Below, piece after piece: positions 17,145-48,299 of a stretch of DNA of 64,000 nucleotides. The position numbers and the translations under genes are program-made. Source of the stretch: Psammoneis japonica. Its lineage: Eukaryota. How positions within the stretch are numbered: the stretch's first letter is position 1; each line of letters opens with the position of its first letter. Location of the stretch: contig QPGO01000028.1 in assembly GCA_008632985.1 (NCBI GenBank), positions 367,598 to 431,597 on the forward strand, read 5' to 3'. A model generated the notes under the pieces. The model ran no database searches, had not been told where the DNA came from, and was given only the letters and a program-made list of their open reading frames with translations.

Positions 17145-17359
17145 GCTGGACAATTGTGGCAGCTGCAGTGTGTGGTGTCTTGCAAAAAGGCAAAAAAATG
17201 AAATTCGAGTGGGCGAGTGCTGGATGCCCCGGCATGCTGTGTGTGCACGCCTCTCTGTGGCTTTTTGTTGGCAATCTCAAGATCCAACACTCCAGCTTTC
17301 CAGCTTTGGCTTGAAGTTCCTTTGGCCTTGGATGATTGATGGTTGGAGCACACATCAAT

Positions 17360-23297: not shown

Positions 23298-24199
23298 GGA
23301 GATTCTTTGGCACTTCTGTTTCTTTGCAAACATGAAAGGCAGTGACCTCTGCTTGCTTTGCACAGCCCATGGCACCATTGAAAATCTTGCAAAATGTGCC
23401 AATCAAGTTCATCTTGGCAGCCAAACTTGGACATTTGGAGATGGCAACACTGAGCAATTTGGGAGAGTCAAGTCAATGCCTGGACTGAGAGAGCATGAGT
23501 CATTTGGCATTCTCACAATCGCACCCCCACCTTGATCTGCACTTACATTGGAGCTTTGGCATCTTGCACCCAGCCTTGAACTGCTCTGCAATGACAGAGG
23601 GTGGTTGGCAATGCCCACGACACTCAGACGACATTGGACACATGGTGCATGATGACAGCAAACAAGATGGTGACAAAAAAGGTCCCAAACAATGGTGCTG
23701 GAAATTGATGAAAATGGCAGTGTTTAGTGGTGCAATTGTTGGAGGTGTTGCAGTGCTTTTTTTTGTGTTTTGCAGTTTAGAGGAGGAGCTCTGATGATGC
23801 CAAAGAAAAAAGCTCCAGTGTGCCCCACACAAATTCTGTAATGCACATCTTGCTGACATTGAAAGCTGCAGTGGGCAGGTCATTCCTGTTTGGACAGTGG
23901 GATTGCTCTCAAGTCATGGGCCACACTTGTGCTGCAAGCAAGCTGGGCCCCTCTGCCACATCATGGAACAACAACAAAACACCTTTGGCACATTGTCAAA
24001 ACTGTTGGCGAGTGTTTCTGATGCACCAGCCACCTCTGCTCTGTCAGTGCAAATGGTGTGTGCATCATCCTTCTCATCATTGCTTTCATTGACATCATCA
24101 GTCAATGTTTTGTGAGTCACAGCATGGTGCAAGCCCTGCTTGTGCATCTGCAGGATGTCAGTTGTGCCATCAAGGATTGGGCTCCAACTGGCAATTGTG

Positions 24200-26300
24200 C
24201 AGTGCAGTTGTCCTCATGTGCAATGTCCCCCACCCATGGCACCCATTCAAAGATTGCACAATCATGGCAAGCAAAACTCTCATCACTCCAGGCTGCTCTG
24301 TCACTGACACTGGCCCAAGATGTGAGCTCACCCCCATCACAGCACCAACTGGCACCAACTTCATGACAATGGCAATGGCCATGTTTGCAGCAGCCCATGA
24401 TGCTGTTTGCCCTGCATCCCCACCTCCTCATGCTGCTGTGCATGCAACTGGCTACCACACCTGTGGGAGATGTCCCAGCCCCAACATTGCAAGTGAGGCC
24501 CTGCCTCCAGCCTCTCCTGCCTGAGCAGCCACACTTCCTCTTGTGCCATCCCTTCTGAGTCAATCTCTGTGTCCACCACCCACTCTTCCTCCAAATTGGC
24601 CTCACACACCTCCTGACAATGGCACCTGACCAGCCAACCAGCATCCCAGCCCCCCCGCCCTTGCCCATGCATTGGCCACCAACCTGACAGCATGATGCCA
24701 ACAACAACTTGATGAGGCATTTCAACAAAAATGGGCCAATTCCAAGCCACTCCTTTTGCAAAATTCCATGGCAGAAGTTTGTTGGCTCAGACAGATTTTC
24801 CTCAACAAGACAGCCAACAATGCTGTGACAAACTCCAGAACAACCCTGCATGCATCTCTCCCAGCAGACCTGCAAATCTCAACTGTTGAACACTGTTTGC
24901 ACACACATGACAAATCAACTGGATGCCTGTTGCAATGAAGCCATTGCCCTGGCAGTTGATGCTGCCAATGCTGCTGTTGCCTCATGTGATGACATCTTCA
25001 TTTGACAATTCTGAGTGGGGCACAATGATGCCCAAAATCAACAAACGTCTCCTTGCAGGATGTTGCCAGAGATTGAGGCTGGCCTGTTCATTGTCCTCAA
25101 ACAGATCAAATCTGCTGTCCAAGAGCACAAGACCCACACAGACACAGCAGCACCCAATGGCCTTCACCAACTTGGGGATCTCACCAGCAGCCAGCAGCAG
25201 TTGAAAAAATCTGGGAAATCGCACAACAAAATTCACCCAGGAGATGACTCAGGAAATGAACCTCCTCCATGCTTGCCTGGAGGCAATGCAGGACATGACA
25301 GAATCTGTCATTCAGAGCAGGCTGGTCCATCCATGGCAAACATGATGGCAAGCAGAGGCTTGACCTGCAAGGTGTGGGCAACAGATCCACTGCCCTCCTT
25401 TTTCCATGGATGCACACATTGACAACCCCATGCATCCTTGTTTGTTGCAACTGATGAGGAGCTTGTGGACACCCTGTGCAAACAGTTCAATGGTGTGATG
25501 GCTGAGATGGCTCAACTTGTGGCACAGCAATGTGACACTGTTGATGCCATGACAACTCAAGCAACAGAGGTGCAGAAGGTCTTGTTTGCCATGTGGCACA
25601 TGGCAAAGAATGGGGCAATCACAAAAAGAGCTTCAACCATCTGCCAATCAATGAAAACCTCACACTGGAATTTTTCAGCTGACTGACTCTTTCCACAAAT
25701 CCCCAAAAAGCCATGCACTCAAGGACATTTGCGCACACTGCTGTGCCATGTCCAATTCCAATGGCAACTTGAGCACCTGTGACAACACCATGGACAACTG
25801 CATGTTGCTGCCGCCCCACCCTCCATCTTGTCTCTCCATGCACCAGAGCCCTCCACTTCACTCCCTTGCCTGCTCTCTCTCCCCAAACCAATGCGTCCCA
25901 TCAGATGCCTTTTTCCATCTCATGCTGCAATGCAGACTTCACCTTCCAACCTCTCCCAACCAATCTGAGTCCATTCATTGCCCCTCCAGCAGCAGTGGCA
26001 CCACTGATCCCTGTGGCAAGCATGCCTTCTGCTGTTGCTCACTGGCGCACAAAACCACAATGTTTGGCCTCTCTGCACAGAGCAACAATTCTTCTGCCAT
26101 CCACCACACAAACCTGCAAATCTTGTCCCAACACTCTCCCCTCAAGCACCTGGCTGACATTGGTGTCAAACTCCCCCCCCCCATGCTGCCAGGCCACCCC
26201 AGCAGCACAACAGGGGGCCTGCAGAGCCTCACCAGCCTCACAGAGTCACTTTGTCCCTTGCCAAAAACTGCGCGCTCAACTTGCTGCTCCCTCATCCAAA
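24200..26300 (+). pseudogene. Possible non-LTR (CRE/RLE-type) retrotransposon relic
   Basis: F...LQCRLHLP...C....DPCGKHAFCC and LADIGV in ORF 25748..26494 resemble the CCHC/RLE C-terminus. Very degenerate. Confidence 0.35.
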
Positions 26301-26646
26301 AACCAGCCATGTCCCACCTGCATGACCCAATTGTCATGTGTGTTGTGTCGGTCATTTCCACTCGACTTCACCCTCCTTGCCATTTCAATTGTCGCAGACA
26401 CGAAGCCGCCCCATTCCTGTGCCCTCGTTTGTCGGAAGTCGAACGTGGCCACGATCACAATGGACAACATCCGACAATGTGGAACTCAAATTGACTTGAT
26501 GAATTGTGTGTTGTGCAAAATGATTGCTGCAAGCAGGGATTCAGCTAAGTCTCTGGTCAAATCTAAATCAAGGTTCATGCGCTGGACTTGTTGGAGGGAC
26601 TCTTTGGCATTTTTGATGCCGCACTTGACTGGCACAGTTTGACCAG

Positions 26647-28686
26647 TCATGATTGAAGGGAAATGATCATCTTGGGCTTGGTGCGCATTTGCACACGACC
26701 TTTTGTAAAGTTCTCTTCAAAGCATGGATTGCATCGGTCCGTCGCAATTTGGGCTCCTCTTCCCCGCTTTGGAGGGCGGCAATCCACAACTGTGTCCCCG
26801 CTCGCGCTGTGCATGGCATGCTGTGCACAGACATTTTTGCGAATTGTCACCAAAATCGCGCATGTGCATGGCATGCCATGCACAACTCAATTTTTTGGCG
26901 CCTTTTGGTCACCCTGTCAATCAACTGCTTTGAAGTGTCTGGAAAGACCTCATTGTGTCAAACATGTCAGACGCCTTTGACGTTCTCATTGACCCACTTG
27001 AAACGGTTGATGTGGCACACGTGCAATGAGATTCAGCGATGCACGCAGAAATGATGTAGAAAAATGCTTGTGCAACTCCTCGCACAAAAGCTGCGCGTTG
27101 GCCTCGCCAACAAGTGACTCCACTTCCAAGGTCATTGGAACAAGAAAGCTGCCATTTTAAAGGCTGTCCATCAAACATGCTAGCAAGCATTGACTCATCG
27201 TCAACAAACGCTATCCATGTCCTGCAGAAACGAGGCACTTGGAACTTGAGTGACTCAAACCTTGTGCATGGCATGCTGTGCACAACGTAGAATTCTGCGT
27301 AAAAAATCCCGCCAAAATTGACCAAATTCTGTGGCATTAAACAGCCATGTAAGCCCCATGGCAGAAGCTGTCCTTTTCAGCCTGTTTCGACCGTCGAGTG
27401 TGCTGAAAGGTTCGGCATGTCTCAAGAAATGTAATGTCTCGGGGAAGTTTCGCGACACCTCTGAAACATTGTGCATGGCATGCCATGCACAGTGCGCGCG
27501 GAGTGGGGATGTGCTCCTTCGCCTGTACATTTCTGTGCTTGCCAGTGCGAGGTTTGAACCGCGCCAAGTGCTCACCGATTTTGTCACCATTCCGCAAGAG
27601 TTCTACACACCACTGCAATTCCCCAGTGACAAAGAAGTCAAGTTCACCACTGATTTCTTCTCCGTTCTCTCCGGCAGCAAACGCATTAAGCTCCGGAATG
27701 AGACAGTTTGAGTTTGTTAAGTGCATTGACATTGCTTCGTTGAAAACATGCTGAAAAGCTGCCTCCTTTGGAAAATCGTCCTGAAGACTGTCACGCAAAC
27801 GGGAAGCTGACAGCTTCTGAACGGACAAAGTGATCAAGTCATCAAGGCTGTTTGGTGCAGTCAATGCTCGCAAAGGAAAACATCTGAAGTTGTAGAACCA
27901 AAATGCAGCTTGGCAACTGAAATTCCCATCCCGTCCAAGGATTCCGGCTCGGGCACACGGAACCAACGCGTTGTCGACTACTCCACGCCCCGTTGTTGTT
28001 CTATCTGGCGTCAGGATGGCATCCACAATGCGAAGACGACCGGCTTCTGGAAGATTCTCTGGGAGCTCATAACATCTCTTCAGCAACAGAGTGCAATCAG
28101 ACGATCGAAGCTTGGTTGCTGCAGCAGCTTCGTCTTTGTTGTCGACACCCGTCTCCTTGATCCAGTCCTGTAAGAGACGCATTCCTTGCACAACCGCGCC
28201 GATGTGATGTGAGTTCTCTGCCGAGAGCTTACTTAGCATTTTGATGTTACCCAAAAACATTTCCCAATTGTGCATTGCAGGATCTGCAACATGCATCCGA
28301 TAGAGCTGATTGAGTTCATCTTCTTCGATGGACGTATGCGGACAATGCGGCAAAACCGAAAAGTGAACAGGACTTGTGTGGGTGGATAGATCATAAGTTG
28401 CAGCGATAACAACGTAAAAGGTTGTCTTACAAGTCACCGGCAAGGCTTTCACAAGTGACTGCCAGAACCCCCAATGCTCCTGTCCACACCAATTTTGAGC
28501 ATCGTCTAAAAGAAACCACGTCTCTTTATATTTTCGGCTTTTGCTTTCTTGTTCACCGTCGCTGCCGCTGCTGCCCTCTCCCTCCGTGACGCCGAGTTCC
28601 TCCATTCGCTTTTTGACGTCCGCCACTTGAGTCATCACATTTAAGACCCGGTGCAACACCTTTGTGCCATCCCTTTGTCCCCGCAA
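26647..28686 (-). pseudogene. Crinkler(CRN)-like NTPase + PD-(D/E)xK nuclease gene, split by a MITE and lacking its 5' end
   Basis: Walker B-like WFLLDDAQ; EAAFQH.F, GELDFFV, WCVELLRNGDKIGEHLARF. The C-terminal VVDCR..R...F resumes at 26790 on the far side of the MITE. Confidence 0.7.
26797..27502 (+). mobile_element. ~705-bp non-autonomous TIR element (MITE), copy A
   Basis: Termini cccgctcgcgctgtgca... / ...tgcacagtgcgcgcgg; whole-length inverted match to 34316-34463 + 43362-43926. Confidence 0.88.
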
Positions 28687-29399
28687 CTGACATGTCCTTC
28701 AGCCAATCAAAAATGTCCTCGGCCGGTGACGGTCGGCTTCAGTCGTCACTCTCGCCAGTTATTTACAGAAGCAGCTAGCGAAGCAGTGATCTCCATTTTG
28801 GGAGAAAAACAATCTAGTGGATGTGTTTCAATGATCACATCTCCGCCGCAAACCCCATCATCCGAACAAACCCTCCGTGCCTTGCCCCCCTTTTTATGTG
28901 ATGAATTCGTTTCACTCATTCTCTCTGTCGGAAAATGCCATCTGAGCAAAATGGCATAGACTTGGCACAAATTGCGTGTCGCATGATGGTCAATTGCTTC
29001 CACAGATCCGGGTCATCAACTGCGTTCATCAACGCACCATCCGCAAATTTGGATTGCCGCAAACACCCACATGAATCCAATGGACAAAAAAAGTGTGTGT
29101 GTTGTGAAAGTTCACATTGCTTTAGCGACAAGTGACATGGCTGCTGTGCTCGCCAAAATTGCCAATGTTTTTAATCGTGAAATGTCAATGGAGAGTTTGT
29201 TGCGGAACGACATTGACTGATCACAAGTGATCATGAGCGAGCCAAACTGATCAAAACCAATCAAAAGCAATCACAGACAATCAAGACAAATGAGTGTCCA
29301 CAGACAAACTGAAACTGCAGCCCTTCAAATCTGACCATCACCCTCTGCCCAGTTGAATGACATCATTGACGGAAAATTGTTTTGTCCTCCGTTCAACCA

Positions 29400-30400
29400 A
29401 AACGAAGCTTCACAAAATCAAAGAACACCAACCATGGTCGTTGTTGTCTTGCCGCAGGATTTCCTCAAAGCAGGCCTTGATTCTGTTGGTTTCAATCAAG
29501 GGGAGGTAAAACCTGGAGTGGCTGCACTCTTCACTGCGGCAACCATGGTTTTGCTTTTGGGGCTTTGCTGGCTGTTTTTTGAGCAAAACAGTTTGAAGTT
29601 GATGTCAGTCAATGTGTCCTTTCCATCTTCTCATGTTGATGATTTTTTTTTGCACAAACAGACAGCTGAGCCATTGGATGACAAAACCCAGAGCAACGAC
29701 TTGTGCGCGAAATCAAGAAAATCGCAGTTCTTTGTTTTTGCATGCAAGGTGCATTTTGCAGTGCTGCCTGTGTGGGAACATGCTGGCTGAAGAGCACCAA
29801 GCCACCAAAAAGCTTCACCTGACAATGAAAATGAAAGTTTGGTGCCACTGCTTCTCATTCAGCCATCCATGATGATGTCATGGTCAAACAAACCCAACAA
29901 TCAACAACTGTGGAAAGAGATCCGGCATCTGCACAGTGCCGCAGGGAGACATTTTGTGATTGATTGTTGCACCACCCCAAGACAGAATTCAGGGCATGGC
30001 TGATCATTCATCAGGGCAGGCTGCAATGAGCAGAAAGCCTTTCACTGTGTTCTTGCAAAAAACTTGTGCTTGTGCTTGTGGATTTGGTTGCCATGCAACC
30101 CTGAAAAAAAGACTAGAATGTGCTGCATCATGGCCAACCCCTCTTGGCCGTCACATTGGTTGTCAGAGCTTTGTTTCCTGGCACTGAAAATCACGTGGAA
30201 ATTGCACAGAAAATGATTTTTGTTCGGCTCAATGGGGTGAAACTTTGTCTTAGAACCACCCTCTGTTTTGACCATTTGCATCGTTGGAAAGCTCTTTCAC
30301 TCCACTTTTCAGTCATGTGTTTTTTGCAAAAAGTTGGAAAAGTCAATTTCCCATGTTTTGTCATCCAGTGGTTCAGCTGGCTGTTCTTCACATGGGAGCC
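29400..30400. mobile_element. Probable DNA-transposon relic (possibly PIF/Harbinger-like) with an internal inverted repeat
   Basis: MVVVVLPQDFLKAGLDSVGF fragment; 29660-29690 matches 30352-30382 in inverted orientation. Confidence 0.3.
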
Positions 30401-30419
30401 ACACACTCAACTTTCAAAA

Positions 30420-30530
30420 CCAATCACAAGCAACCACACAAGCAAGAAAAAGTGGCAAGTGAGAAAAAGCAATCACAAGTGAGAAAAAGCAAACACAAGC
30501 AAGAAAAAGCAACCACAAGCAATCAACAGC
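30420..30530 (+). repeat. Degenerate ~20-bp tandem repeat (caagYRagaaaaagcaaHca)
   Basis: About 4 imperfect copies are directly visible. Confidence 0.7.
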
Positions 30531-31839
30531 CCTCACAACTTGCAACACAAACAGATGCAACAAATGAAAAATTTGTTGACAATGTGTTCTTTGCCAAACA
30601 AGACCAATTTTCAACAGACAATCGCTGTGAACTGTGTGACACAAATGACTGAAATTTCCATTGGATTTGTGTGAATGTCCACAATGGACAAAAATTTGTG
30701 GACGGCACCACCAGTTTCACCCAACTTGCACAGCAAACTGCTCCTTCCCACAGAAGTGTGCACATTTTTTGCACCAGTTTGCCATTTGCTTTGTCATGAA
30801 TCATGATTCCTTCGAGGTGCGCCATGGTCTCTTTTGCTTGCCACTTGTGCTGCTTTGCTCTCAGTTTGATCAACTGCACATTGTCCATCTCAGTCATTTG
30901 TTCTGGACATGTCTGCAATTGTGACAAGCATTGGTGTGCACAAGGGTCTGTCTGTGATGCTTTTTTTGTGGAAAAGCTCACGGCCAATGTGAAGTCCAGC
31001 ACATGGTTGGTGGCTGGCAAGCCGAGCTGACAAGAGCCGTGTTTTTGCACCACACCTTGAACGCGAGGGTTGATGGACCTGGGTGAGTGTGGTGCCAAGA
31101 GCATTGTTCTGGTGACAGCTTGCATCATGTGTCTTGTCATTGACCAATCCAACCAATTGTCCCACCATGTTCAGTTGCCAGAAGTGCTTTTTTGAGCTGT
31201 TGCCATGCGCCACCCATCTCGGCCAGTGTTGCCCCTCTGACTCTGAAGAGTTGTGTGAATGATCTCTTTGGTCCAGTGCTTCAAATCATGAAACTTTTGA
31301 CCTTTGACGATGCCTGGAATCAATGATTGAGAGCGCGGCTTGGCCTCGTCTCTCTTTGCCGAACAGCGCTGCTTGGTTGAGCGTGCCACGCAGAGATTTG
31401 CTCTTTGGAGAAACGTGTGCCAATTGCTTTCACTTTTAAGATGTTCATGGATTTCATGCCAGATGGCAGTGGTGGCAATGATGGAAAGCATGGACTCTGA
31501 ACTTGTGTTTTTCCCCACTTTCCCGCCATCTTCATGCGCGACTTGAGACCGCGCGCGCGATCATTGATTTTCTTGTGGTTACGTGGTGCCTTTAGGGCTA
31601 CAGCACCGTACGTGGACATGGCCCAAAACCTGCGTACGTTAGAATCTTTCGTCGGACAGACTACCCTCCAAGCACCCCTGCCTGCCTATGATACCGGTAC
31701 GCCTGCGTGCTGCCCACCGCCCGCCCACCCTCCAAAAATTGGAATAGCAATGTAGACCAAAGAGGTTCACAAGAAACAACTACAACGCAAAGACAAACAG
31801 TATTCCAACAACACGCCAGTCTTAAGCCATACTATTGCT

Positions 31840-32526
31840 ATGAGCCGAAATGAAGAGATTCTGGTTCTCTTTGGATCTCAAACGGGAAATTCCGAGCAGG
31901 CCGCGCAAGACTTTTGTAACGCCGTCCCCGAAAAGCTCGGCATCACGGCTCGGCACATGCAACTCGACGACTTTTTAGAAATAGAACAAGCTCCATGGAC
32001 ACGTCTTGTTGTGATTTTCACCAGCAGTTATGGTGTGGGACAAGCACCGCTCGGGTGTTATCGGTTTCGAGACTTGTGCGATGCGCTCGTGGAGCGATAC
32101 GAGGAAACGCCTCGCTCGGAGAAAATACTCGAGGGAGTCACCTATGCCATGTGCGGTTTGGGGGATTCCATGTATACGACATTTTTTGAAAATCCAACTG
32201 TGATCGACACTGCCATGCAAGCGGCGGGGAGCAAGCGGATTGGGCCACTCGGTAAGGCAGACGCAAGTGGTCAAGGAGAAGACGATCAGCAAAAGGTTAT
32301 TCAAAATTGGATTCAAAATATATGGCCGGTGTTAAAAAAGGAACTTGCAACTGATCCGCCACCAGCAGAAAACTTGGAACGAGCCACCAAGGAGACGGTC
32401 AAAATCTGTAGTGAAATCAACCCTGAATTTGAAACGGGGCAAAGCAAGAAATCTGGTGGTTTGTCGCTTCTTGTCCCTATTGTGGTTGGAGCTGTTGCAG
32501 TTGGATGGTACTATCTACAGAAGTAA
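31840..32526 (+). CDS. Stand-alone flavodoxin-like (FMN-binding, CPR/NOS-type) protein with C-terminal TM anchor
   Basis: LFGSQTGNSE, FTSSYGVG and YAMCGLGDSMY motifs; hydrophobic tail LLVPIVVGAVAVGWYY. Intact ORF with normal TA content. Confidence 0.9.
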   Translation: MSRNEEILVLFGSQTGNSEQAAQDFCNAVPEKLGITARHMQLDDFLEIEQAPWTRLVVIFTSSYGVGQAPLGCYRFRDLCDALVERYEETPRSEKILEGVTYAMCGLGDSMYTTFFENPTVIDTAMQAAGSKRIGPLGKADASGQGEDDQQKVIQNWIQNIWPVLKKELATDPPPAENLERATKETVKICSEINPEFETGQSKKSGGLSLLVPIVVGAVAVGWYYLQK

Positions 32527-33062
32527 CAGGAGAGCTTGTCTGGAGTTTAAGGCAGGAGAGTTGCGGTTTTTCTTGCAGCAGACGCGGCAAACAGATAGCA
32601 GAGCTGGCAACACACTAATAGTCCAAGTTATGGAAGCGCTCCTACATTAGATAAGTCGAGCTACTGTCAGCTTCTCAAGTGCAAAACAAGACGCTCAGAA
32701 GGTCTCCTCCACATGCGCCATGTCCGATTGGCCATTCCATTTTGCGGTGCCCCGTCGCTTGATAGCACTGGTACCGCAGTGCAGTCCGTGATGGCGAGAA
32801 AAAGCTCATCTGTTCACCACATGCCACTGAACCTTCAACTTTACCATTACTACAAATGTCGAAGCTTTGCTGCTCGTGGACTCCTTTGGCCTTGTCCTCT
32901 GTAGCTCTGTAGGGCTCGTCGTGGGTCATTGTCTTCTTGAGACGCGAAAAATCCGGTGCGATGCCTACTACATAATTTCCTGTGCTGTGCATTCCGCATT
33001 TCTCCGGCCAGCCAACAGTGACAACGCGACAAGCATCAAAACAAGGGAAAAAAAAGTCTGAA

Positions 33063-34211
33063 CTATTGAGCCTTACATTGCAGTGTGCATGCGTAACCGG
33101 TTGAATTACCCGGGAGATCACAGATATCTTTGAAACAGGCACCCACATAAAGGCCGGAGGATGCATCGCGGGGCCCCAGGGGCCAGTCTAAGCAGAGCGC
33201 GCTTTGGAAGCGTTTGCAGCGTTGCGGGTTCATGTCGTGATCGACGGCCGTGTGCTTGACTCGGGGCCACACATATCGCGCCAAAAAGTTTTGATCGTAC
33301 GCACAGCAACCGGGCACTCTGTCGGGAAACTCCTTCAAGGCTGTTCGGACCAACTCTGTCATGGTAGTAGTAGGAGTGGTCGTATTATGACTGTGCTTTG
33401 CCGTCCCCAAAGCGCTACGTTTCATACCAAACATGCCACCCATGATCGGCACTACATGATACTCGTGATCACGCATGGTATGGAATTTCAAGTCGGAGTA
33501 GCTCATCCATTGATGGACTGCCAACAGTTCGCGTGGACTGAAGCGGCCATCGACATCACGGACAATGGTATAGTACACTGTCGGATCATCGTACGGCAAA
33601 AAGCGTACCAGCATTCTGTGTCCTGGCGATTTGATGATCCGAGCGTTGGATGCGTGACACTTGACAACCTCAACAGAATCAGTGGAGAGGTTCAAAATTT
33701 CTTGGATGGTTTCTTGCGAAAGCCCAATCGCATGCACGCGGACAACCCAATCGGGATAGTAGAGCTTGGCTCCCTCAACATTGTGCTGGAGACCTTCGAT
33801 CAGCCAGTCTGCCAATGACCCACTGTCACCGTCACTACTGAATAAAGCATAGGATATGATTTTCTTTCTCGGATTCCAAGTCTGCTTTTCACCAAGAATC
33901 TTGGTATCGCAGAATTCACCGTAGGGGCGTGCTTCTGATGCAGACGTAGCTCTGAATGATGCTGACCATTCGCTGCGGTTCAGCAGCCGTTCTGATGACG
34001 CCGCTTGTTGACATTTTTGGTTCTCGATGTTGCGGTGCTCATTGAGCAATGTAAGGTACACAAGAATATAAGCGAGCGTCACAACAAGAACACCACGCCA
34101 CCTTGGCAGTAAAGTGCGAATACGCATCAGCACTTTGCGGACGCCGCTGCCGCAGCTCTCCATCATGGTCATCCGAGCTCTCATAGCAAGCCCCTCGCTA
34201 TTGTATGGCAT
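33063..34211 (-). CDS. Type II membrane protein of an uncharacterised glycosyltransferase-like family
   Basis: N-terminal TM; KIISYALF, WVVRVH, RFLP, VRDVDGR..RE..AV..W, FHTMRDH..H..PIMGGMFG and DQNFL..YVWP. Start codon uncertain. Confidence 0.75.
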   Translation of the reverse strand: MPYNSEGLAMRARMTMMESCGSGVRKVLMRIRTLLPRWRGVLVVTLAYILVYLTLLNEHRNIENQKCQQAASSERLLNRSEWSASFRATSASEARPYGEFCDTKILGEKQTWNPRKKIISYALFSSDGDSGSLADWLIEGLQHNVEGAKLYYPDWVVRVHAIGLSQETIQEILNLSTDSVEVVKCHASNARIIKSPGHRMLVRFLPYDDPTVYYTIVRDVDGRFSPRELLAVHQWMSYSDLKFHTMRDHEYHVVPIMGGMFGMKRSALGTAKHSHNTTTPTTTMTELVRTALKEFPDRVPGCCAYDQNFLARYVWPRVKHTAVDHDMNPQRCKRFQSALCLDWPLGPRDASSGLYVGACFKDICDLPGNSTGYACTLQCKAQ

Positions 34212-35511
34212 GGAAGTTCGTTGGGAGTTTGTTCACTCCTCTCTCTCCACTCTCCACTGTTCAACGCACGATCTCGATCAAGGTGCGCGCTCCGAACGCA
34301 GCATCCGAAAAATACCCCGCGCGCACTGTGCATAGCATGCTATGCACAACGTTTCAGAGGTGTCGCGAAACTTCCCCGAGACATTACATTTCTTGAGACA
34401 TGCCGAACCTTTCAGTACACTCGACGGTCGAAACAGGCTGAAAAGAGCAGCTTCCGCCATGGGATTCGATATAGTGCGCCGCCGATTCCAATCTGGCACA
34501 GACCTGGACTGCCGCACCAAGAACCACCAAGAAGAAACTTGGCATTAGAACACTTGGGAGTCTCACAGAGCAGAGCTTTCGGTGACACTCTGCTCCGCAC
34601 AAGGGGGGTTGGGAAAAACCCATGCCCTCCGCAGGGTCTCGAGTCTAAACTCGAGGGCTCCCGAATGGGACCTGCTGGGATCCACTCAGGGTGATTCCGG
34701 CTGAGCCTGGGACGAGGTGCCTTCGGCGCTGCGCGACGTCGGCACCCCGCACGAGGTGAGTCTCGAACCGGAATCGCAGACATCGCCAGACGCTGTTCCT
34801 TTGGTTTCGTAGCAGTGCGTCATCATGAGCAGATCATTGGTGGAACTGTTCTGGACTTTGCCGGTGGACTCCCGTGGTCGAACCAGCAAAGTTGAGCACA
34901 AATCCAGGGAGTGGTGGGTGGGTTGCAAAAAGAAGCTTTTCCACTGCTTTGGTGTGATCCAGTCACGTTGATCAGGGTTCCTGTCTCAACAAAGATGGAA
35001 AAGCAAAGGCAAAAACGCCGAGCAGGTTTGACCGGTCACTGTGACCGGCAATCTTGGTCCAGAAGTGCCCTCTTCTGGAAGGGCCACAAGTCTGAGGTCT
35101 TGTCAGTTGGGGAGTCTTGCACGGCACGGTGCGTCTCCATCTAAACTTGGGCACGAGGAGGATTCGACACAGTGCGCCACCGACTCCAATCTGGCACAGA
35201 CCTGGACTGCCGCACCAAGAACCACTGAGAAGAAACTTGGTGTTAGAATGCTTGGGAGTCTCACAGAGCAGAGCTTTCGGCAACACTCTGCTCCGCACAA
35301 GGGGGGTTGGGCAAAACCCACACCCTCCGCAGGGTCTCAAGTCTAAACTCGAGGGCTCCCGAATGGGACCTGCTGGGATCCACTCAGGGCGATTCCGGCC
35401 GAACCAGCAAAGTTGAGCACAAATCCCCCCCTGTGAGAACTCCCCGGCAGTGGCCACCTGAAGAAAACGATCTAGAAACTTGAGCCGTCGGATCGAGTCG
35501 ATGATGTTGAC

Positions 35512-36814
35512 TCACATTTCCTGTGTGTATCTCAAGAAAGAAGGAAGGAGCAGTGAGACATCTGCACAGTGCTGCCTCATCTTGTGTGTGGGTCAGGCAG
35601 CTCCAACTTGTTCCTTCTTCTTCCATCGATTCACCACGTCCATGTCATCCTCTGAAACATTTCGCGAAATGGCTCGGGAATCGGACACCCGCCGAAACGA
35701 CCTGCACACGTCGCATTTATCCTCGATGTCACTGTGGGAGGTGATGTCGGCTCCAAACAGAGCCGGGTGGTTGTCGAACAGCTCTGACAAAACGAGGTGA
35801 AGGAGGGAGTTTAAATCCCGAGTGCGAACCACCTTGCCACCAGCATCGGACATGGCAGGCCCTGGGGTGCGTCCTCGCGAAGCCTGTAACGCCACAACTG
35901 CTTGGGCCCATTGCTGCAACCGAATGCCGGATCCGGTCACATTCACACTTGGGAGAAGGTGCTGCCGCTCTCCGTGTTCTCCCTTGACCCGACCAAGCAA
36001 TGGGATCACTGCGTGCGAGTCGTGGAGAGGGAGGTGCTCCCTCAGGGCTCCCAAGTCGATGAGCAACCCTTCGGGGCCCCAGAGGGAGAGCGCGAAGCTT
36101 GTGGCAAAATGGGGCCCGCCAGTCAAGTGTCTGAACCGGTCCCCAGGAGTTGTGGCTCAAAGGAACTTTTCTTTGAGCCTTGGGAGAAGGTGTTGCATGA
36201 TCTGGGCCAAAATGGCCCTGTCGGGTCTCCAGTCCTGACCCATTCGCCTCTTGCATCCTGTCATGAACCTCTGGAACCACAAGGAAGCGCACGGGTCTTC
36301 ACATGTCCAAAGGTGTTGCTTCCCTTCGAGATCCGCTAAAGCAAGAGCTCATGAGTCAGCAGAAGCTGAAGCCCTCACCTGGTTGGAACAGGCAGTTCAA
36401 AGTTTCCTGACACAGTGTCGAGCTGAGTGCAAGACCCCGAGTGCCGTCCGGGAGAGGTCAACGCCAAGACGATCTGCATTGCAACCTTGCACCGTAGCCA
36501 CAATGGTCATGAGGAGGAAGAGGCCCTGGCTCTAGATGAGGGCCGTGAAGTCCCAACCGCTCCGACAGGGCCAATCCCCGCGCCACCTTGGAGGCGTTGT
36601 TTTCCACCGCAGTGCTTTCTCTGCTCCAAAACGCATCCAGGTTTACCCGCCTGATGCAAGCCAGTGCCATCTCATCGCATGGGGAGGAGGTTCCCGGGTC
36701 TCTGTGTGACACAACTTGTGAAACATGCACGAATCGCACTCGAACGCCACCATCAGATGGTCTCCTGTTCGAGCTCGGGTGAACTTGTGTCAGTCCTGAG
36801 GCTTCCGAAACCAA
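35512..36814 (-). pseudogene. Tyrosine recombinase of the YR element
   Basis: IRRVNLDAFWSRE, LWGPEGL (LRGxEG-like), LLGRVKGE, RSFRR, VNRW and MRQHCAD (probable catalytic Tyr now Cys). Confidence 0.8.
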
Positions 36815-36841
36815 GGGTTGTCTTCAATTCGGGCTGCATCT

Positions 36842-39800
36842 TCACCCAGCTGCTCCCCGTCGTTCTTTCATTGGTCGGGCTGAAGAATCCCGCCCAGGTG
36901 GAACATCGCGCTTGCGCTCGAAGCATGACACCCTGGACACCATGCCTTGCGGCACGCGGGCCAGTCCCCAACACTGTGAACAAAATTGGCACAGAATGTC
37001 CCTCGAGTCCACTTCAGCATCCTCCCACATTCTTTGCAGCGTCCGCTCCATAGAGTGCATCTTTGGGGTTCCTCGAAGCTGCCACGGACTGTGTGAAATG
37101 AAGGGAAAAACAAGACCGATGAGAAGGGGTTCGAACATTTCACCAGGCCAAAAAGGCCCAGCTCCGGCCGGCACTGGAAAAACGATGTCCGCTGCCTTGC
37201 ACAATTGTTTTTGCCACTCGGGGGTCATGAGTCGGGGACACACAAAGATGTGAAATGACTCCTGGCGCTTGAGCCGTGCAATTCGCAATTCTTCGAGGGC
37301 CGCCCTAGCCGCAGCTGGGGGTGGTGCCCAAATCCAAGTCCCCGACCAGAACACGGGCATCTCGACTGCCTCACAAAGCAGGCAGTGCCACCCAGATGCG
37401 TCATGTTTCTTGTGGCACCAGTCCAGCGGTGAGAGCAGTTCTGCCACAGGTGATCCCGCCCAGGAGCGTGTCCACTCTAACAGCGAAGGGGCTCGCTCCG
37501 TTGCAGCCAGGTGAAGAGGCACGAATGAGAGCATCCTGGCTCCATTCATGACTCCTTCGGTCAGCGCGCCTCGTGACACTCCATCTGTGCCCTGGGCTGT
37601 CATCCGTTTGCCCGACACATGGACAAGGTGCAGCATGAAGCCGCACCTGGCCTCAAGCACCCTCAACCGAATCACCTGTTCCAGGAGCTTCGGATTCGAT
37701 GAAGTCCCCTCATACACGGCAATCTCTGAAACGGAGTTGTCAGTAAAAAAGCAGAGAGTGGCTCCTTCAAGCTCGCCGGATTCAGCCAGCTCCTGAATGG
37801 CATCGATTGTGTTTGACAGCTCCTTCCAATTCGACGAGTTTGACTGGTCGTCATCACCCCAGACGCCAATCCGGAATACAATCGCGCCGTCCTTAGTCTG
37901 GACTGAGGATCCCAGACCTCTTCCAGACGCATCGCCAAATCCGCGCAGGACCACCACGACCCTCGACGATCGGATGACCCTTGCTGTTGGTTTTTCGGGC
38001 TCTAGAATCCATTGTAGTGCTTTCAAGTTGGAGAATGAATGTGGCACTGCTCGAACCGACTCGGGGTGCTTGCCGTCTCGAAGGGTCTCGGTGAGTTCAC
38101 ATGGGTTGACTCCAAGCTTGTCTGCCTCATGATGAATCCACGATGCGCATTCCTTGTCAGCCATGGCCCACCCGTCTGCCTTTCGGTTGGGCGCCAGCCA
38201 TCCAAAGTCAAGTGAATCTCTTTGAGAAAAGGGGTTGGGAAAGGGTGGGTCATGGCCGCATGGACTAGAAAGCCCCGTTTCCGCTCGAGATCCTTGAAAC
38301 CAAAGTCCAGGAGGGCGAACTCGTCCATCCCGTCATGGTGAGACAGAAGAAACTTGATCATGTCCTTGCCCTTGTCCCACTTGGCCTGAGAGAGTGATTG
38401 AGTGACGTTTGGACCAAGGACACGAAAAACAGCCCCCGCCCAGGCGCCAGTCTCTTGCTGTGATGGGGGGCGGACCTTTCGAGGGGCGTTCTGGAGCCCG
38501 AAACATTGCAGCCTGGAAGCCATTTGATGGGCCACTTGCCAAGCCGCTTCTTCACTGGCTCCCATGCCTCGCAAGTCGTCAACGAAGGTTTTGATGTCAC
38601 CGGCGATGATTTTCAGCACAGAATTCCATTTAATCACAGCAGGGTCCTGAACTTTGTGGTTGGGATCCCCTGGTGGGTTGAGCAGGACTTTGTCGAAACC
38701 CATTGGATTTCCAGGGCGGCTGGGGTCGCCACGTGCCACTTCGTCCGCCCAGCAGCAGGTTCGCACCGCGTTGTGAGGGCTGGGCTTCATCCCCACAAAC
38801 AGTCGGTTCCAACGCTCCATGCCTGCTGGAGATTCATTCCCCACTGGGTGGGGGAGGTGAGCCCGAAGCGGCGACAAGTCGATGCCGGCATGCGGACGAA
38901 TCTTAGGGTCCACAAAAAAGTTGAGAAACATGTCCCCGAGATCAAAATCAATGGAAAAGGTAGAGTCGGTCATGCACCCAAGCACCGATGCCGCGGCAGG
39001 GAGGAAGAAGGAAGGGGCCCATAGAGCGTCATTGAGCCCAGACGAGGTGCCGTTGTGCGCCATTCTAATGTCTTCAATCACTTCCTCCATCCTTCCGTCG
39101 GGACCCGGGATCAAAGACACAGCCTTGGGCACCCAAAAACAGTCTGTGAGACTCATTGCTGGCCCAGCCTCAATGCACCCATGGTCCCGGACCTTCTGCA
39201 TTTTCGCAGCCATGCGCTGGACCTCGGTGGTCGAGCCACGAACACGTTGCCGCCTGCAATTCCGGGGAAGCGTGCCTCACACAAATGTGGGGAGCCCACC
39301 CCGTGCCACCTGGCGTTGCTCGGGTGAAGGCCAGCGCCAAAAGAAAAGAGATGACCCCCGGTCCCAGTTCCACCAAGAACTTGCCAGAGTCTGCGAGAGA
39401 ACGTCTGCGCCAAGGTTCCCATCCAGCAACAAAGATGGGAGTGGTGGGTCTCGGCACAACCCCCCCCCCCCCCCCCCGATGACTCAACAAGGAGTCCCCC
39501 AACCATCGCCGCCAGCCAACCAGGCGAAGTGGCCAAGCAGGGCCATGACAACTCCGCAAGCATCCCAAAAAAGAGCGTGTTGACCGCCGCCACCACCACC
39601 GGAGAGTGAGCACTCGCAGAGCTGGGAGGACAGGTCCAAATGTGGGAAACAGAAGGGTTGTGCGCTTGTCCCACAGGCGAAATGGCGGCAGTGCAGAGTC
39701 CCCTTTTGCCGCCTTGGCAGTGACAAGGGTCAGGTCAATCCATTCATGCGACAGGTGTTGGCCCAGAGCAGGTGGCCAAGTGGCAGTGGCTGGCGCAAGG

Positions 39801-39943
39801 ACCCGGGTAGACCCGGCCGCAGGGAGCTGCACTGAAGGTTGTGAGATGCCCCTCGATCGTTGCACAATGAAATGGTCCGTCACTGTGGTGAGGAGATTGA
39901 GAGGAATCAACAGCTTCAAAATCTCACCAGATGCCAGACCCAA
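36842..39943 (-). pseudogene. RT + RNase H of the YR element (frameshifted)
   Basis: DFDLGDMFLNF, GMKPSP and TFVDD (38023..39213). GFGDASG, SSNWKEL, FTDN, HVSGKRM and QGTDGVSR (36842..38164). Confidence 0.88.
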
Positions 39944-40701
39944 AAAATCCTGGGTCCGAAATCAAAGAGGGAAATCCCATGCGGCAAGGAGTTTGTCCTC
40001 AATCAAACTCCTTGGGATCCACCCCGTGTGAGATCGATGAGATTGGCGCACCACAGGTCACTGGGGGAATTGATCTGGGGAACTCGCCTGTCCCGCCAAC
40101 TTGTGGTCAATGACATGCCCGATGGATTGATCCAAGCCCCGGGTCACATCAGGGAGTGAGGCACCAACACCAAAGAAGGACGTGCGAAAGGTCGTGATGC
40201 CACCAGTCCCCGCATGGGCAAGGGTGGCGCAAGGTGGGTGTCGCAAACCCCGCAAGCTTCGTCTCGAGACCCGTCCGACCGGAACCAAGTGCATCAGGGA
40301 TTCGCACTCCAAACGAGAGATCCGCTCCAAAAACACAGGGTCCCCAGAGACCAAGATGACATTGCTAGATTTCGAAGCCTCAGCAATGCCGGACGACGAG
40401 ATGCACTGAAGCGATGCACCCACTTGGGCCTCAAAGAGATCTGTCAAAAGAATCTCCAACGGCGATGGCAGTTCATTGTCACAACACAGGACAACACGAG
40501 GCCACTCAGAGCACCTGAGAGCCAAAAGCCAAGTGGGGGGCCCAGTGCAAACAATCAAGCAGGAACCGCGGAAGGAAAACACTTTGCGGCCACGAATGAC
40601 GAGCCCTTTGTTTTCCCCTGGGGGTGACTCCTCCCCCATTGAGCTTCATTTCTTGGACTCTAAAGCCTTGAGCCGCTGGTTAACTTCCTTCAACTCCGTC
40701 T

Positions 40702-43130
40702 TTAGCTTGTTGACCTCCTGGTGAGCCATGTCCACTGAGCCTGTGCCGACTTTGCCTCAGTTCCTGCGTTCTTTGCTTTGTCCGTCAGAGCAGTCACCGC
40801 AGCTTGAAGGGCGGTTGCTGCCTCAAATCCAGAGTTTGTTGCAAGGAATTTCACATGCTCCGAGGCCATCGACGGGTGGTCCCTAAAATTGTGGGCCGTG
40901 CACTCAGCCATCATGTCCTGGGAGCGAAAAACCGCCCAAAGGATTTGGCTGCATGCTGCACCCGGATCCGTGCCCGCGATTGATGTGAAGACCCCAGATC
41001 GGACCTGATTGAGATCATCAAAAATGCGGTGCACTGGCTTTGACGTTAAAGACCAAGCCTGCTTGTGTGAAAACTTGCTCAACTGCACTGAGTTGTCGCA
41101 GGTTTCATCCATGAACTGGATCAGTCCCTGCACAAATGCCACCGACTTAGACAGCGCGTCTCGAACCACCTGACCCTCGAAAGACCCGCCAGGGATCCTC
41201 TGGCCGATGTCACTCAGAATGTTCCTTTCGACAGTGCCAATCTTTTCCACAATGAAGTGTTTGGTCCCTGTCGACCCAGTCGTCCAGTGGTCGTGTGTTG
41301 CCACCTTGTCCAGGAACGAAGGATGCAGACCCGGGGACTGGGCACCTTTTGCTGAACCCGAGTCGAGGATCCCCGGCATGCTGTGCTGGAAGCTGGCCAG
41401 AGTTCTTGCGTCCTCTTCTGTGCTGATCTTTAAATCCATGCGCTTGGACAAACCCGCCAAGAAATGGTGCAGTGCTGCAGGTTCGGCACCCACAATCCAG
41501 TGCAACAGCAAGTTTGCGTCCGTGAGGCAACCATGCGCTCTGGACGAAAAATGTTGGACCATCCAGGCTTGGCATTCCCCAAAGGACGACACACCTGCTC
41601 CCGAGAACTTGATCGCCGACGAGTCAGACTTGGACTTCAACTCGTTCACCGCTTGGCCAAGGTCTCGGACCCGATTCTCGAGCGATGCCGAGATTCCAGT
41701 CCCCAATCCACCACCCAGGCCTGGTGAGCCAGAGTTTTCCAGATTCTGGACTCCACTGACAAGCTGGTTGCACACCCTCAAGATCCCCGCTCTCAGAGAG
41801 TCCATGTCCCGTTTCGCGGCCATCCCCAACATTTGGGCTTGTAGTCCCTGAATGGCGGCGTTGACTCTTGAAGCCAGGCCATTGGAGCCAGCCCAAAAGT
41901 TGCTTTCCATGCACGACAACTCGGACGAGAAATCCCAAGGTTGGTGATCCAATGCACCAACAGCTGTCAAGTTGGCGAGTGTTCCCCAAATCGTCGGGGC
42001 TTCCACGCGCTGGTCAAATTCCGGCGGAGGGGAACCCAGAGAGGCGTCAAGCTGCTCCAGCTTTTGACTGAGAACGTTGATGAGAGAGTCCATCTCCTTG
42101 AACTGCATGCAGGCTTTGTTTCCCAGGTCACCAAGTGTGTTGTTTCCCGTCTCCGTCAAGTTGCGTTCAAGGGATTGGACCACGCGAGCCAGGGCTGCTG
42201 GGCTCTTGTTCGCCGCAAGGAACTGAGATGGGGTGGTGGAGATCACTGGTTGGTGAGGCAAGAATTGGCCAAACAAGGATCCCGGGAAGCCTTGCTGAAG
42301 GGGTCTTTCCTCTTGGCTGGGGTCTTGAAAGCCGCCGCCTCCTCATGCTGTTTTAAGGAGGCTCCGAACTCGTCCTCTGTGGGGCAGCGAGTTTCGCTGT
42401 TTTCCAGGACAAGGAATTGCTGGCGCCATCCCGCCAGAGTGTCGGTGGTGGACTCCCACTTCACTGACACATCCGCCAACACAAGCAATCCGTTCAACGC
42501 AGGTTGGCAAAACGCTGTGTCTGGTGTCTTCAGAATCGACACCATGCCGTTGGACGGAAGGCCTTTCTTCGAACCTTTGTGTTTGACCTTACAATCCGTG
42601 GCCTTCTTAAAACAAAAGGTTGCGCCCCCTCCAACAATGCCCATGCAACGCAAATTGTCAGCACCTTCCATCCAAATGACACGAAAACGAGGTGCATCAG
42701 ACGAAGGAGACGCACCTTCCTCCTTCATTGCAGACGCACCTCGAGGAGCTCCCTCATCTTTTGGAGCGAAGAAATCAATGTGAGGTGCACGCTCTTCAGC
42801 TCCTTCGCCTGCTCTAGATGGCAGAGCGTCAAAAGCCGAACCCGGGTTGGGGGAAATGACTTCCCCCAATTCAGCCTGCTCAATGTCCGAATGTCCGACA
42901 TCGCCGGTCATTTCGCCCAGGGTTGAGCCCCCGAGAGAAGGGTTCAAGCCCTCAACCCCCCCTTGATGACCCAACGCGGACGGTGGGGCCCGACAAGAGG
43001 GCGACGAAGGAGAACGAGTTGAGAACGGAGAGATGACATCCACCTTGAGCGTACGAGCGATGTTGACAAAGGCGCCGTCGTCGCCGGAGGAGAAGCAATC
43101 AGGCATGAGCGAGAAAAAGAGAGGGAGCAA
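40702..43130 (-). pseudogene. gag-like ORF1 of the YR element (frameshifted near 42260)
   Basis: ORFs 42243..43130 (C-x-G...FC....C...H) and 40702..42276 (coiled-coil rich) lie directly after repeat A1. Confidence 0.7.
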
Positions 43131-44029
43131 AAAGAAGCTTTTCCACTGCTTTGGTGTGATCCAGTCACATTGATCAGGGTTCCTGTCTCAACAAAGATGG
43201 AAAAGTGAAGGTAAAAATGCCGAGCAGGTTTGACCGGTCACTGTGACCGGCAATCTTGGTCCAGAAGTGCCCTCTTCTGGAAGGGCCATGAGTCTCAGGT
43301 CTTGTCAGTTGGGGAGTCTTGCATCGCACGGTACGTCTCCATCTAAACTTGGGTACGAGGAGGGCTTACACAGCTGTTTAATGCCACAGAAGTTGGTCAA
43401 TTTTGGCGGGATTTTTTACGTAGAATTCTACGTTGTGCATGGTATGCCATGCACAAGGTTTGAGTCGCTCAAGTTCCAAGTACCTCGTTTCAGTAGGACA
43501 TAGATAGCGTTTATTGACGATGAGTCAATACTTGTTAGTATGTTTAATGGACAGCCTTTAAAATGTCAGCTTTCTTGTTCCAATGACCTTGGAAGTGGAG
43601 TCACTTGTTGGCGAGGCTAATGCGTAGCTTTTGTACGAGGAGTTACACAAGTATTTTTCTACGTCATTTCTACGTGAATCGCTGAATCTCATTACACGTG
43701 TACCACATCAACCGCTTCAAGTGGGTCAATAAGAACGTCAAAGGCGTCTGACATGTTTGACACAATGAGGTCTTTCCAGACACTTCAAAGTAGTTGATTA
43801 ATAGGATGACCAAAAGGCGCCAAAAAATTGAGTTGTGCATAGCATGCTATGCACATGCGCGATTTTGGCGATAATTCGCAAAAATGTCTGTGCATACTGT
43901 AGCATGCTATGCACAGCGCGAGCGGGCCGGTAGGTGCCGTAAGGTGTACCTACACTAAAGTTGCACGGCCCAAAAAATAAGACGGAAGTAGAGAACGATC
44001 ACATCCGAACCAATCAAATCTCAGAAGCC

Positions 44030-44246
44030 CCTGCTCACGATGATCGGGGTTCCTGTTCCAACAAAGCTGGAAAAGTGAGAGAATAGAAAACCGAGTTGTT
44101 GACCGGACATCTTTGTTTGAAGGTGCCCTCCTCCAACACACGAACCTGGCATCGAATGATCGATGGGCAGGCTTGCTCTTAGCTTCGCGTGTCTCCATCT
44201 AAGAGGGTTTCTAATGTAATTCTAATAAACTTGGGTACGACGAGGG
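44030..44246 (-). repeat. Diverged relic of a YR-element A repeat
   Basis: tgatcggggttcctgttccaacaaagctggaaaagtg, gtctccatcta and taaacttgggtacga match blocks of 43127-43361 in the same order. Confidence 0.7.
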
Positions 44247-44480
44247 CGATACTGTAGGTAGTTTCCTGTGCTCAAGTGCACTGGCTGGAGAGTGCGTGGC
44301 TGTGCATCTATCTGCCTACCCGATCTATCTGCCTGCCGTGTGTGCGTCGTCCGTATTGTTGCCGGAGGCCGCTGAAGTAAATACGGTACCGGTAGAGCGA
44401 GATGCACACGCGGCAAAACTTTTCCCCTCAAAATGATGGATTCACGGTACGGCTATTCCCACGCCCTGACTATTAGTACA

Positions 44481-47986: not shown

Positions 47987-48295
47987 CCATTCGCTGCGGT
48001 GAAAGAATTTTTTATATTATTAATTACTGAATGTTTTTAATCCAATTTTTTGAGAATTTAGTGATGAAGCACGTGATAAAATCACGGGATGTCCCGTTTT
48101 TAAAAATGCTTGTCTCCCTTACCGCATTTGCAGTGTTGTTTGTTGACACACCTACATAGAGGAACACTGCAAAACCGGTAAGCGAGACATTCATTTTTGA
48201 GCAAAAGGACATCACGATGAGAACACTGGATAAGTTCAGTCGAGTTAGCCCCATTTCTCGAAGAGCCAAATGATTTTTTTCGCCGCAGCGAATGG
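47987..48295. mobile_element. ~310-bp MITE, probably Tc1/mariner-type
   Basis: TIRs ccattcgctgcggtgaaa / tttcgccgcagcgaatgg; flanked by TA on the left and CA on the right. Confidence 0.7.
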
Positions 48296-48299
48296 CAGT

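Follow-up and report, generated by a model that had tools for sequence, protein, structure and literature searches.

The locus

The window analysed here, the whole 64-kb (64,000-nucleotide) stretch at positions 367,598 to 431,597 of the forward strand of Psammoneis japonica contig QPGO01000028.1 (assembly GCA_008632985.1), contains two sequences that are copies of one 712-bp DNA transposon with terminal inverted repeats (TIRs), similar to a miniature inverted-repeat transposable element (MITE), in a diatom-like genome. The present study concerns the way in which the two copies, referred to as A and B, differ from each other at TA dinucleotides, and the mutational process that could have produced this difference. 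The copies and the insertion that divides one of them lie as follows (o/e, observed/expected ratio; ORF, open reading frame).

26797-27508, minus strand: MITE copy A, full length (712 bp), the mutated 'after' copy (contig depth step, loose ends, composition)
26798-26829, no strand: one TIR arm of copy A, carrying a palindromic GTGCAYRGCATGCYRTGCAC-type motif (pairs with 27470-27501)
27470-27501, no strand: the other TIR arm of copy A (pairs with 26798-26829)
34315-34463, plus strand: left 150 bp of MITE copy B, cut off by the insertion (95% identical to 27355-27504, inverted)
34464-43362, minus strand: 8.9-kb retroelement-like insertion splitting copy B (split direct repeats; TpA o/e ~0.1; ORFs on the minus strand)
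43364-43926, plus strand: right 563 bp of MITE copy B, the near-ancestral 'before' copy (TpA o/e 0.76)

A BLAST comparison of the window with itself aligned 26797-27356 with 43926-43362 (91.9% identity, 565 columns), and an inverted-repeat search of the window recovered the two copies as arms of 546 nt with 92% complementarity. The first-pass annotation of this DNA had sited both copies correctly and had taken the element to be about 560 bp long; the full element measures 712 bp, and copy B is a whole copy in two pieces, 34315-34463 and 43364-43926, around the 8.9-kb insertion. The left piece opens with the same CCCC...GCGCGCACTGTGCAT terminus as the element. Family states and copy number were read from contigs of one public read set over 26500-27800; two further runs gave no contig on this stretch, from which nothing is concluded. 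The summed depth of these contigs is ~60 in the flanks and 444-1466 at 26797-27508; it steps up at 26796/7 and down after 27508, and the loose ends of other copies fall at 26795/6 and 27508. Within the MITE the summed depth exceeds that of the flanks by a factor of 7-24, so the element is multi-copy, and the immediate flanks of copy A are single copy at 80% likeness. The element is thus short, multi-copy and discretely ended, and it is also non-coding, since the sole overlapping ORF enters from the flank and has no Pfam family. Its TIRs are 32 nt long with 88% complementarity, and its termini base-pair in a DNA fold (z = -4.7). Rfam gave no match anywhere in the window.

A perfect palindrome of 20 bp occurs four times in the MITE (26808-26829, 26863-26885, 27262-27288 and 27466-27494). 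The palindrome reads GTGCATAGCATGCTATGCAC in copy B and GTGCATGGCATGCCATGCAC in two of the palindromes of copy A, where two TA steps are changed mirror-wise, so that the palindrome is preserved. A scan for the palindromic TIR motif returned 44 metagenome loci, which were rejected as family members, since the BLAST match was limited to the 20-23 nt motif and is due to chance.

Base composition in the window, profiled in 500-bp steps, is bimodal with respect to TpA. For the window as a whole its o/e is 0.21, and long stretches have values of 0.00-0.10. The TA-poor blocks (51,402 bp, ~80% of the window) have o/e values of 0.10 for TpA, 0.61 for CpG and 1.56 for CA/TG, compared with 0.61, 0.97 and 1.21 in the TA-normal islands (12,598 bp), and their TpA/ApT ratio is 0.01-0.2. 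The islands, in which TpA o/e is mostly 0.4-0.9, hold an ArfGap gene and other gene-like ORFs. There are three of them.

11501-16000, no strand: TA-normal island with the ArfGap gene (TpA o/e 0.27-0.66 per 500 bp; sharp edge at 16000)
31501-34461, no strand: TA-normal island ending at the left half of copy B (TpA profile, edge scan)
43364-48500, no strand: TA-normal island starting with the right half of copy B (TpA profile, edge scan)

The depletion is confined to blocks whose edges are step-like, sharp to ~100 bp. At the edge at 16000, a TA occurs every ~15-20 bp until 15901, one more lies at 15999, and none is found past 16500; at the edge at 43364, the last 660 bp of the insertion hold 6 TAs versus 42 in the next 630 bp. 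Copy B sits in a gene island and copy A in a transposon-rich depleted block. The scarcity of TA is also visible in the stop codons in six frames (2802 TGA, 469 TAA, 391 TAG) and the window has 81 ORFs of at least 150 amino acids, many of which overlap in several frames and have no Pfam family.

Differences between the two copies

Over 26797-27355 and 43362-43926, the arms compared in the first-pass annotation, the copies differ by 41 substitutions and 5 gap columns. Transitions account for 37 of the substitutions and transversions for 4. At 26 of the 41, copy B has TA and copy A has TG or CA; four more make up two sites at which TG stands opposite CA, another four set CG against TG or CA, and the remaining seven are of other kinds. 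The first-pass annotation had described most differences as TA versus TG or CA and some as TG versus CA, which agrees with these counts, and all the word pairs that it quoted (aagtacc/aagtgcc, cataga/catgga, ttatt/ttgtt, aatac/aatgc, agtatg/agcatg, ttaatg/ttgatg) are present in the alignment.

Across the full element the copies are 92% identical with 49 substitutions. TA is found only in copy B at 29 sites and only in copy A at none, an asymmetry that lies far outside chance (two-sided sign test, ~4e-9). CG is common to both copies at 32 sites, and genuine CG/TG or CG/CA pairs make up 6 of the 49 differences. The loss is specific to TpA: copy A is changed at 31 of 40 TA sites (78%) and at 5 of 38 CG sites (13%), and the other positions (~556) have 10 changes with both lineages counted together (at most 1.8%). 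The products TG and CA alternate along copy A with no long runs, which indicates that the hits are independent per site and strand. The TpA o/e is 0.21 in copy A and 0.76 in copy B, and the TpA/ApT index of copy A is 0.22. Copy B is near the 'before' state that the first-pass annotation assigned to it, with the qualification that it has a few changes of its own, including the two double sites, so the pair offers a nearly direct view of before and after.

Direction of the change

The pairwise differences taken alone could be read in the opposite direction. Sixteen of them are C/T and fifteen G/A in CpA/TpG context, exactly as repeat-induced point mutation (RIP) leaves them, and a RIP-like C-to-T process would make copy A the ancestral one, with the TAs of copy B newly formed from CA or TG. 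We therefore polarised the A/B differences against the family contigs. A family consensus of TG or CA, which would have turned the direction round, was not observed, and the copy B letter was found in other contigs at all 26 A/B differences among the rows listed. Fourteen of these rows are TA-type sites, and letters other than that of copy A reach at least half of the depth at 10 of the 14. They reach at least 70% of the depth at 16 of the sites listed, and the derived states of copy A are mostly private, which fits mutation in its own lineage.

Half of the TA-type sites among the rows listed (7 of 14) occur in the family in three states, TA, TG and CA. At 27476-7 copy A reads TG, whereas C is the first base in 10 contigs and A the second in 13; CA is thus the majority state there, and TA is present in some copies. 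The other six sites are 26915-6, 26926-7, 26987-8, 27172-3, 27216-7 and 27401-2. A C-to-T change cannot make CA from TG, and the three-state sites therefore contradict C-to-T mutation from the state of copy A, whereas an ancestral TA can yield both TG and CA when A-to-G changes strike its two strands independently. The TpA frequency points the same way: copy B resembles the gene islands and copy A the depleted blocks, and with reverse polarity the match of copy B to ordinary DNA of this genome would be a coincidence. Moreover, RIP raises the TpA/ApT index, which is at most 0.2 in the blocks. These data support TA as the ancestral and TG or CA as the derived state at the A/B difference sites, as the first-pass annotation had proposed.

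A second way to arrive at TG in one copy and CA in another is CpG decay, in which CG would be ancestral, deamination of methyl-cytosine would give TG or CA, and TA would arise by two hits. Sites at which one copy shows TG and the other CA (doubles) are the expected product of independent CpG decay, the blocks have a lower CpG o/e than the islands, and the six true CG differences between A and B are of this kind. The number of doubles can be compared with expectation in the inverted pair 1946-2358 / 4235-4647, which has 26 shared CGs, 8 single CG differences, 1 shared TA and 6 single TA differences: CpG decay predicts ~0.3 doubles and TA loss ~4.5, and seven were observed. In the MITE, the 32 CGs shared by both copies stand against only 6 differing CG sites; at the CG-type sites 26849, 27055, 27251 and 27468 the family retains CG in 43-95% of the depth, and the contig counts at the three-state sites can be explained without any contig bearing CG, so these sites are not decayed CpGs. 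Since CpG decay cannot remove TA and leaves its loss unexplained, CGs are largely shared and the family keeps them, we reject CpG decay as the sole cause and regard its probability as close to nil.

The pair 1946-2358 / 4235-4647 is 413 bp long and 92% identical and flanks a 662-aa ORF with a weak aspartyl-protease match; 28 of its 32 substitutions lie in shared pyrimidine-purine (YR) dinucleotides, and its CpG o/e is ~1. Another inverted pair, 16748-17145 / 22910-23297, has 74% identity and 18 doubles, with TA and CG both saturated, so that the two ancestries are inseparable in it. It belongs to the block 16001-26796, where CpG o/e is 0.03-0.4, TpA 0.00-0.21 and CA/TG up to ~2, and which is probably the oldest or most exposed part of the window.

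The insertion in copy B

The 8.9-kb insertion contains two pairs of direct repeats, D1a (34462-34707) with D1b (35160-35405) and Ya (34925-35161) with Yb (43127-43363). The minus strand runs Yb, ORFs, D1b, Ya, D1a, which fits the A1-ORFs-B1-A2-B2 arrangement. Such split direct repeats are the architecture of DIRS/Ngaro/PAT-type retroelements. The ORF 38023-39213 appears reverse transcriptase-like by language-model features only (score 0.93-0.95). Eight ORFs of the insertion gave no meaningful Pfam match (E up to 1), the one ORF searched against PDB had no sequence match, and no recombinase was found in the insertion. On its repeat architecture and the language-model lead, the insertion may be classed provisionally as DIRS/Ngaro-like.

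The excess of doubles seen in the pair 1946-2358 / 4235-4647 recurs here. The D1 pair has 5 doubles against 10 CGs in common and 4 CG sites that differ singly; in the Y pair the corresponding figures are 2, 6 and 2. Together the terminal repeats have 7 doubles and 5 single TA differences. At all five single differences TA is retained in the outer-edge repeat copy and replaced by TG or CA in the inner one, with no case of the reverse. This suggests that the process acted on the insertion in place and faded at the block edges, although the sites are few and both members of each repeat pair are assumed to have been the same when the element inserted.

Loss of conserved tyrosines

The window holds Copia- and Gypsy-type reverse transcriptases, and a gene-like ORF adjoins copy A. 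Two of these coding regions were compared with their homologs at conserved tyrosines, which are encoded by TA-containing codons.

53029-54018, minus strand: Copia-type reverse transcriptase (Pfam RVT_2)
27511-28686, minus strand: gene-like ORF adjoining copy A, of a diatom protein family, partly TA-stripped (63 homologs, the named ones from diatoms)

The Copia reverse transcriptase was aligned with 120 homologs, and a column was taken as a conserved tyrosine where at least 70% have Tyr. Only 2 of its 12 conserved tyrosines are kept; seven are replaced by Cys, two by His and one by Leu, and the Cys and His replacements are encoded by TGC, TGT, CAC and CAT. By comparison, 170 of 183 other conserved columns and all 10 conserved Phe are kept. 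Arg is kept at 9 of 12 columns, with one Cys and two His as the signature of CpG decay. The catalytic box of reverse transcriptases (YXDD) reads HVDD in the Copia-type enzyme and CSDD in the Gypsy-type enzyme at 2-1216. In the transposon ORFs of the window, Tyr makes up 0-1%, His 3-7.5% and Cys 1.5-4.8% of the residues. Conserved Tyr codons have thus become Cys or His and not the reverse. This is the opposite of what a RIP-like C-to-T process would leave, and together with the family states and the doubles it shows that the derived changes are A:T to G:C at TpA. The RIP-like reading is therefore rejected as extremely unlikely.

The ORF 27511-28686 has lost its tyrosines as well: among seven conserved Tyr columns two are kept, and one has Cys, three His and one Phe. 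None of the 10 conserved Arg (CGN codons) has been lost, which speaks further against CpG decay, and of the other conserved columns 125 of 141 are intact. By contig depth the ORF is single copy over its first 290 nt, the part covered. Tyr lost with Arg kept means that TA loss is here uncoupled from CpG decay and that it affects DNA that is not evidently repetitive.

Two of the 120 Copia homologs, P0149 and P0187 from environmental assemblies, keep 3-4 of the 12 conserved tyrosines and have Cys or His instead. Judged from these two sequences, the loss of TA may not be limited to this record. The best named matches of the ArfGap ORF, the Copia reverse transcriptase and the ORF 27511-28686 come from Eucampia, Odontella, Cylindrotheca, Nitzschia, Seminavis and a Bacillariaceae metagenome-assembled genome, all of them diatoms, and on these matches the host is called diatom-like.

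Sequence context and level of action

The two products are balanced on the sense strand. In 11 transposon ORFs or ORF regions and the whole insertion, the TG/CA skew on that strand runs from -0.13 to +0.09, with both signs. The process is thus strand-symmetric, and this balance, the TIR nature of the element and the hit on a single-copy ORF together indicate that it acts on DNA.

These observations bear directly on A-to-I editing of transposon RNA by an ADAR/ADAT-like enzyme with a preference for a 5' U, whose results would be fixed by reverse transcription, with the MITE carried in a retroelement transcript. An A-to-G change after T is the neighbour preference of ADAR, and most of the affected sequence in the window derives from retroelements. 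RNA editing predicts an excess of TG over CA on the sense strand, against the balance found here; copy A is a TIR element between single-copy flanks, the gene-like ORF 27511-28686 is affected, and the terminal repeats of the insertion differ at TA-derived sites, which suggests change after integration. On the sense-strand balance and the hit on a TIR element, RNA editing is rejected as very unlikely, in line with the first-pass annotation, which had dismissed both RNA editing and reverse transcriptase error for a non-coding TIR element.

The sites are not hit equally, and their flanks matter (R, purine; Y, pyrimidine). The TA share among YR steps, block versus island, is 0.02-0.04 at ATAT, ATAC/GTAT and GTAC and 0.42-0.51 at TTAA, CTAG and CTAA/TTAG. 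In agreement with this, the TAs kept in both members of repeat pairs number seven for YTAR, five for YTAY, one for RTAR and none for RTAY. With a -2 purine and a +1 pyrimidine on the mutated strand as the two candidate cues, forty polarised events have C as the +1 base in 19; their products are 9 CA and 5 TG in RTAR and 4 of each in YTAY, and in the compartment counts, too, YTAY shows a gain of TG equal to that of CA. The simplest summary of the flank effect is a symmetric duplex preference for RTAY.

We also considered whether the signal could be produced during sequencing or assembly, by a DNA modification in transposon chromatin that is read as TG or CA. In favour of this, the signal keeps to chromatin-like blocks, and the records of the read set give neither its chemistry nor its library type. 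The read-set contigs (exact 31-mers, depth ~60) reproduce both TA-poor flanks of the element, 26500-26837 and 27438-27800, with 0 differences and no variants listed. Every site has one fixed product, where a symmetric modification would give a mixture of TG and CA, and the family copies carry different fixed products. With consistent single products per site and an exact contig match, a sequencing artefact is rejected, and we consider it exceedingly improbable.

Interpretation

The best explanation of the data as a whole is a block-wise, TpA-directed A:T-to-G:C mutation of genomic DNA that hit copy A and left copy B near the ancestral state, and we put its probability at about three in four. 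A change of one strand's adenine would turn TA into TG, and a change of the other strand's adenine would turn it into CA. Copy A, in its transposon-rich block, has lost ~78% of its TpA through such transitions. The data show the direction of the change, its specificity for TpA, its equal action on both strands and its confinement to sharply bounded blocks, and it runs far faster than CpG decay or background mutation. It reached both a DNA transposon and the single-copy DNA next to it.

We infer that the process is enzymatic, on account of the rate excess and the sequence recognition, and that it is linked to the silencing of transposon chromatin. That copy B escaped and an adjoining single-copy ORF did not argues for targeting by chromatin state and not by duplication. 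Most simply, the chemistry could be deamination of adenine to hypoxanthine at 5'-TA-3'; alternatively, a mutagenic thymine modification that pairs as C could have the same outcome. RTAY is hit hardest and YTAR least, which would point to recognition of a duplex step. Our confidence falls from the enzymatic nature to the aim at chromatin and further to adenine deamination as the chemistry.

The main rival of an enzyme is a passive effect of chromatin, in which a lesion at TpA (oxidised thymine or a TA photoproduct) goes unrepaired, or is repaired with a bias, in silenced chromatin, and no dedicated enzyme takes part. It would account for a signature that follows blocks and not repeat identity, with copy B spared and the single-copy neighbour hit, and for the co-occurrence with CpG loss, a mark of methylated chromatin. 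Against it stand the extreme rate excess (78% for TA versus 13% for CG and at most 1.8% for other positions), the step-like edges within ~100 bp, and a flank dependence that is strong and symmetric (0.02-0.04 for RTAY versus 0.42-0.51 for YTAR) and resembles sequence recognition. We therefore regard a passive effect as improbable, although it deserves more weight than the rivals rejected above.

Several points weigh against TpA-directed block mutation as we have set it out. The data come from one 64-kb window and one read set, which is possibly the assembly's own sample. Repeat homology by itself cannot set off the process, since copy B is a member of the family and was largely spared. The family table covers 26 of the 49 A/B differences among the rows listed and leaves 23 without a family row; states shared by 9-10 contigs may reflect a subfamily and not independent hits, and the contigs are fragments, not whole copies. 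The assumption that the repeats of the insertion were identical when it integrated rests on a provisional element class, and the insertion could have arrived already TA-poor, in which case the sharp edges there are no proof of action in place. Finally, the assignment to one MITE made in the first-pass annotation, which is borne out by the TIRs, the fold pairing, the discrete ends and the high depth, falls short in one respect: no target-site duplication is present at the flanks of copies A and B. The duplication of copy A could be blurred by the loss of TA; copy B should nonetheless show one.

Comparison with known systems shows a partial likeness to each of them. RIP of Neurospora and other fungi is likewise a DNA-level hypermutation specific to one dinucleotide; its changes are all transitions and fall on both strands, and the result is ruined transposons and sharply delimited blocks of odd composition. 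It is premeiotic in timing and dependent on RID/DIM-2-type methyltransferases. RIP differs in turning CA/TG into TA (C:G to T:A), whereas TA becomes TG/CA here (A:T to G:C), and in raising a TpA/ApT index that is 0.01-0.2 in our blocks. RIP belongs to fungi and the present host is diatom-like, and RIP is triggered by duplication, which is not the evident trigger here, where a family member, copy B, was largely spared and single-copy DNA was hit. Decay of methyl-CpG takes place in the same blocks and has the same products, TG and CA, but its substrate is CG and not TA; it is ~6 times less complete than TA loss in copy A (5/38 versus 31/40) and absent from the ORF 27511-28686, which lost its Tyr codons.

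Editing of the ADAR/ADAT type (A-to-I), like the A-to-G hyperediting known from retroelements and viruses, shares the A-to-G change with a 5' T/U neighbour, but it acts on RNA, is strand-asymmetric and becomes heritable only via reverse transcription, in contrast to the strand-symmetric change in a TIR element seen here. Both TadA/ADAT and ADAR enzymes are known to prefer this neighbour. The TadA-derived laboratory adenine base editors come close in chemistry, as they deaminate DNA adenine, prefer a 5' pyrimidine and turn TA into TG; they are, unlike the present process, engineered. We know of no described natural eukaryotic DNA adenine deaminase that is aimed at transposons, and to our knowledge the transposon-directed mutators, i.e., RIP, APOBEC and methyl-CpG decay, all deaminate cytosine. 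The literature covered, from which most subscription journals are missing, gave no description of transposon-directed TA-to-TG/CA mutation or of extreme TpA loss in diatom repeats. We cannot place the mutational process in any known category.

A further step, which we take tentatively and rate at somewhat less than an even chance, is that diatoms, or at least this one, possess a dedicated genome defence that edits DNA at TpA in silenced transposon blocks. In such a defence a DNA adenine deaminase or a thymine-modifying enzyme would act on duplex RTAY-type sites and convert TA to TG or CA on either strand. Tyr codons, TAA and TAG stops and TA-rich signals would be erased, which would make the defence a mirror of fungal RIP with other chemistry and with chromatin state as the trigger.

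Whatever its cause, the effect of TA loss is the destruction of Tyr codons, including those of the reverse transcriptase YXDD box, and of TA-containing signals in transposons. The value of the MITE pair is that it isolates the process on a DNA transposon and provides one nearly untouched copy as a reference. If the reading as block-specific removal of TpA by A:T-to-G:C mutation is true, it would represent a new kind of programmed or chromatin-linked DNA mutagenesis, and a natural enzyme acting on adenine or thymine in the DNA of a eukaryote would have to exist, a matter of interest for base editing. It would also matter for diatom annotation: TA-stripped DNA has few TAA and TAG stops and thus spurious long ORFs, so gene callers would over-predict, and transposon ages estimated from divergence would be unreliable. 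The TpA o/e could then serve as a simple index for mapping silenced compartments.

Further observations in the islands

The TA-normal island that starts with the right half of copy B contains two tandem repeats, 96 nt x3 at 45071-45358 and 57 nt x3 at 46325-46495, which lie inside or beside ORFs. The ORF 45862-46647 encodes a helicase-associated (HA) domain.

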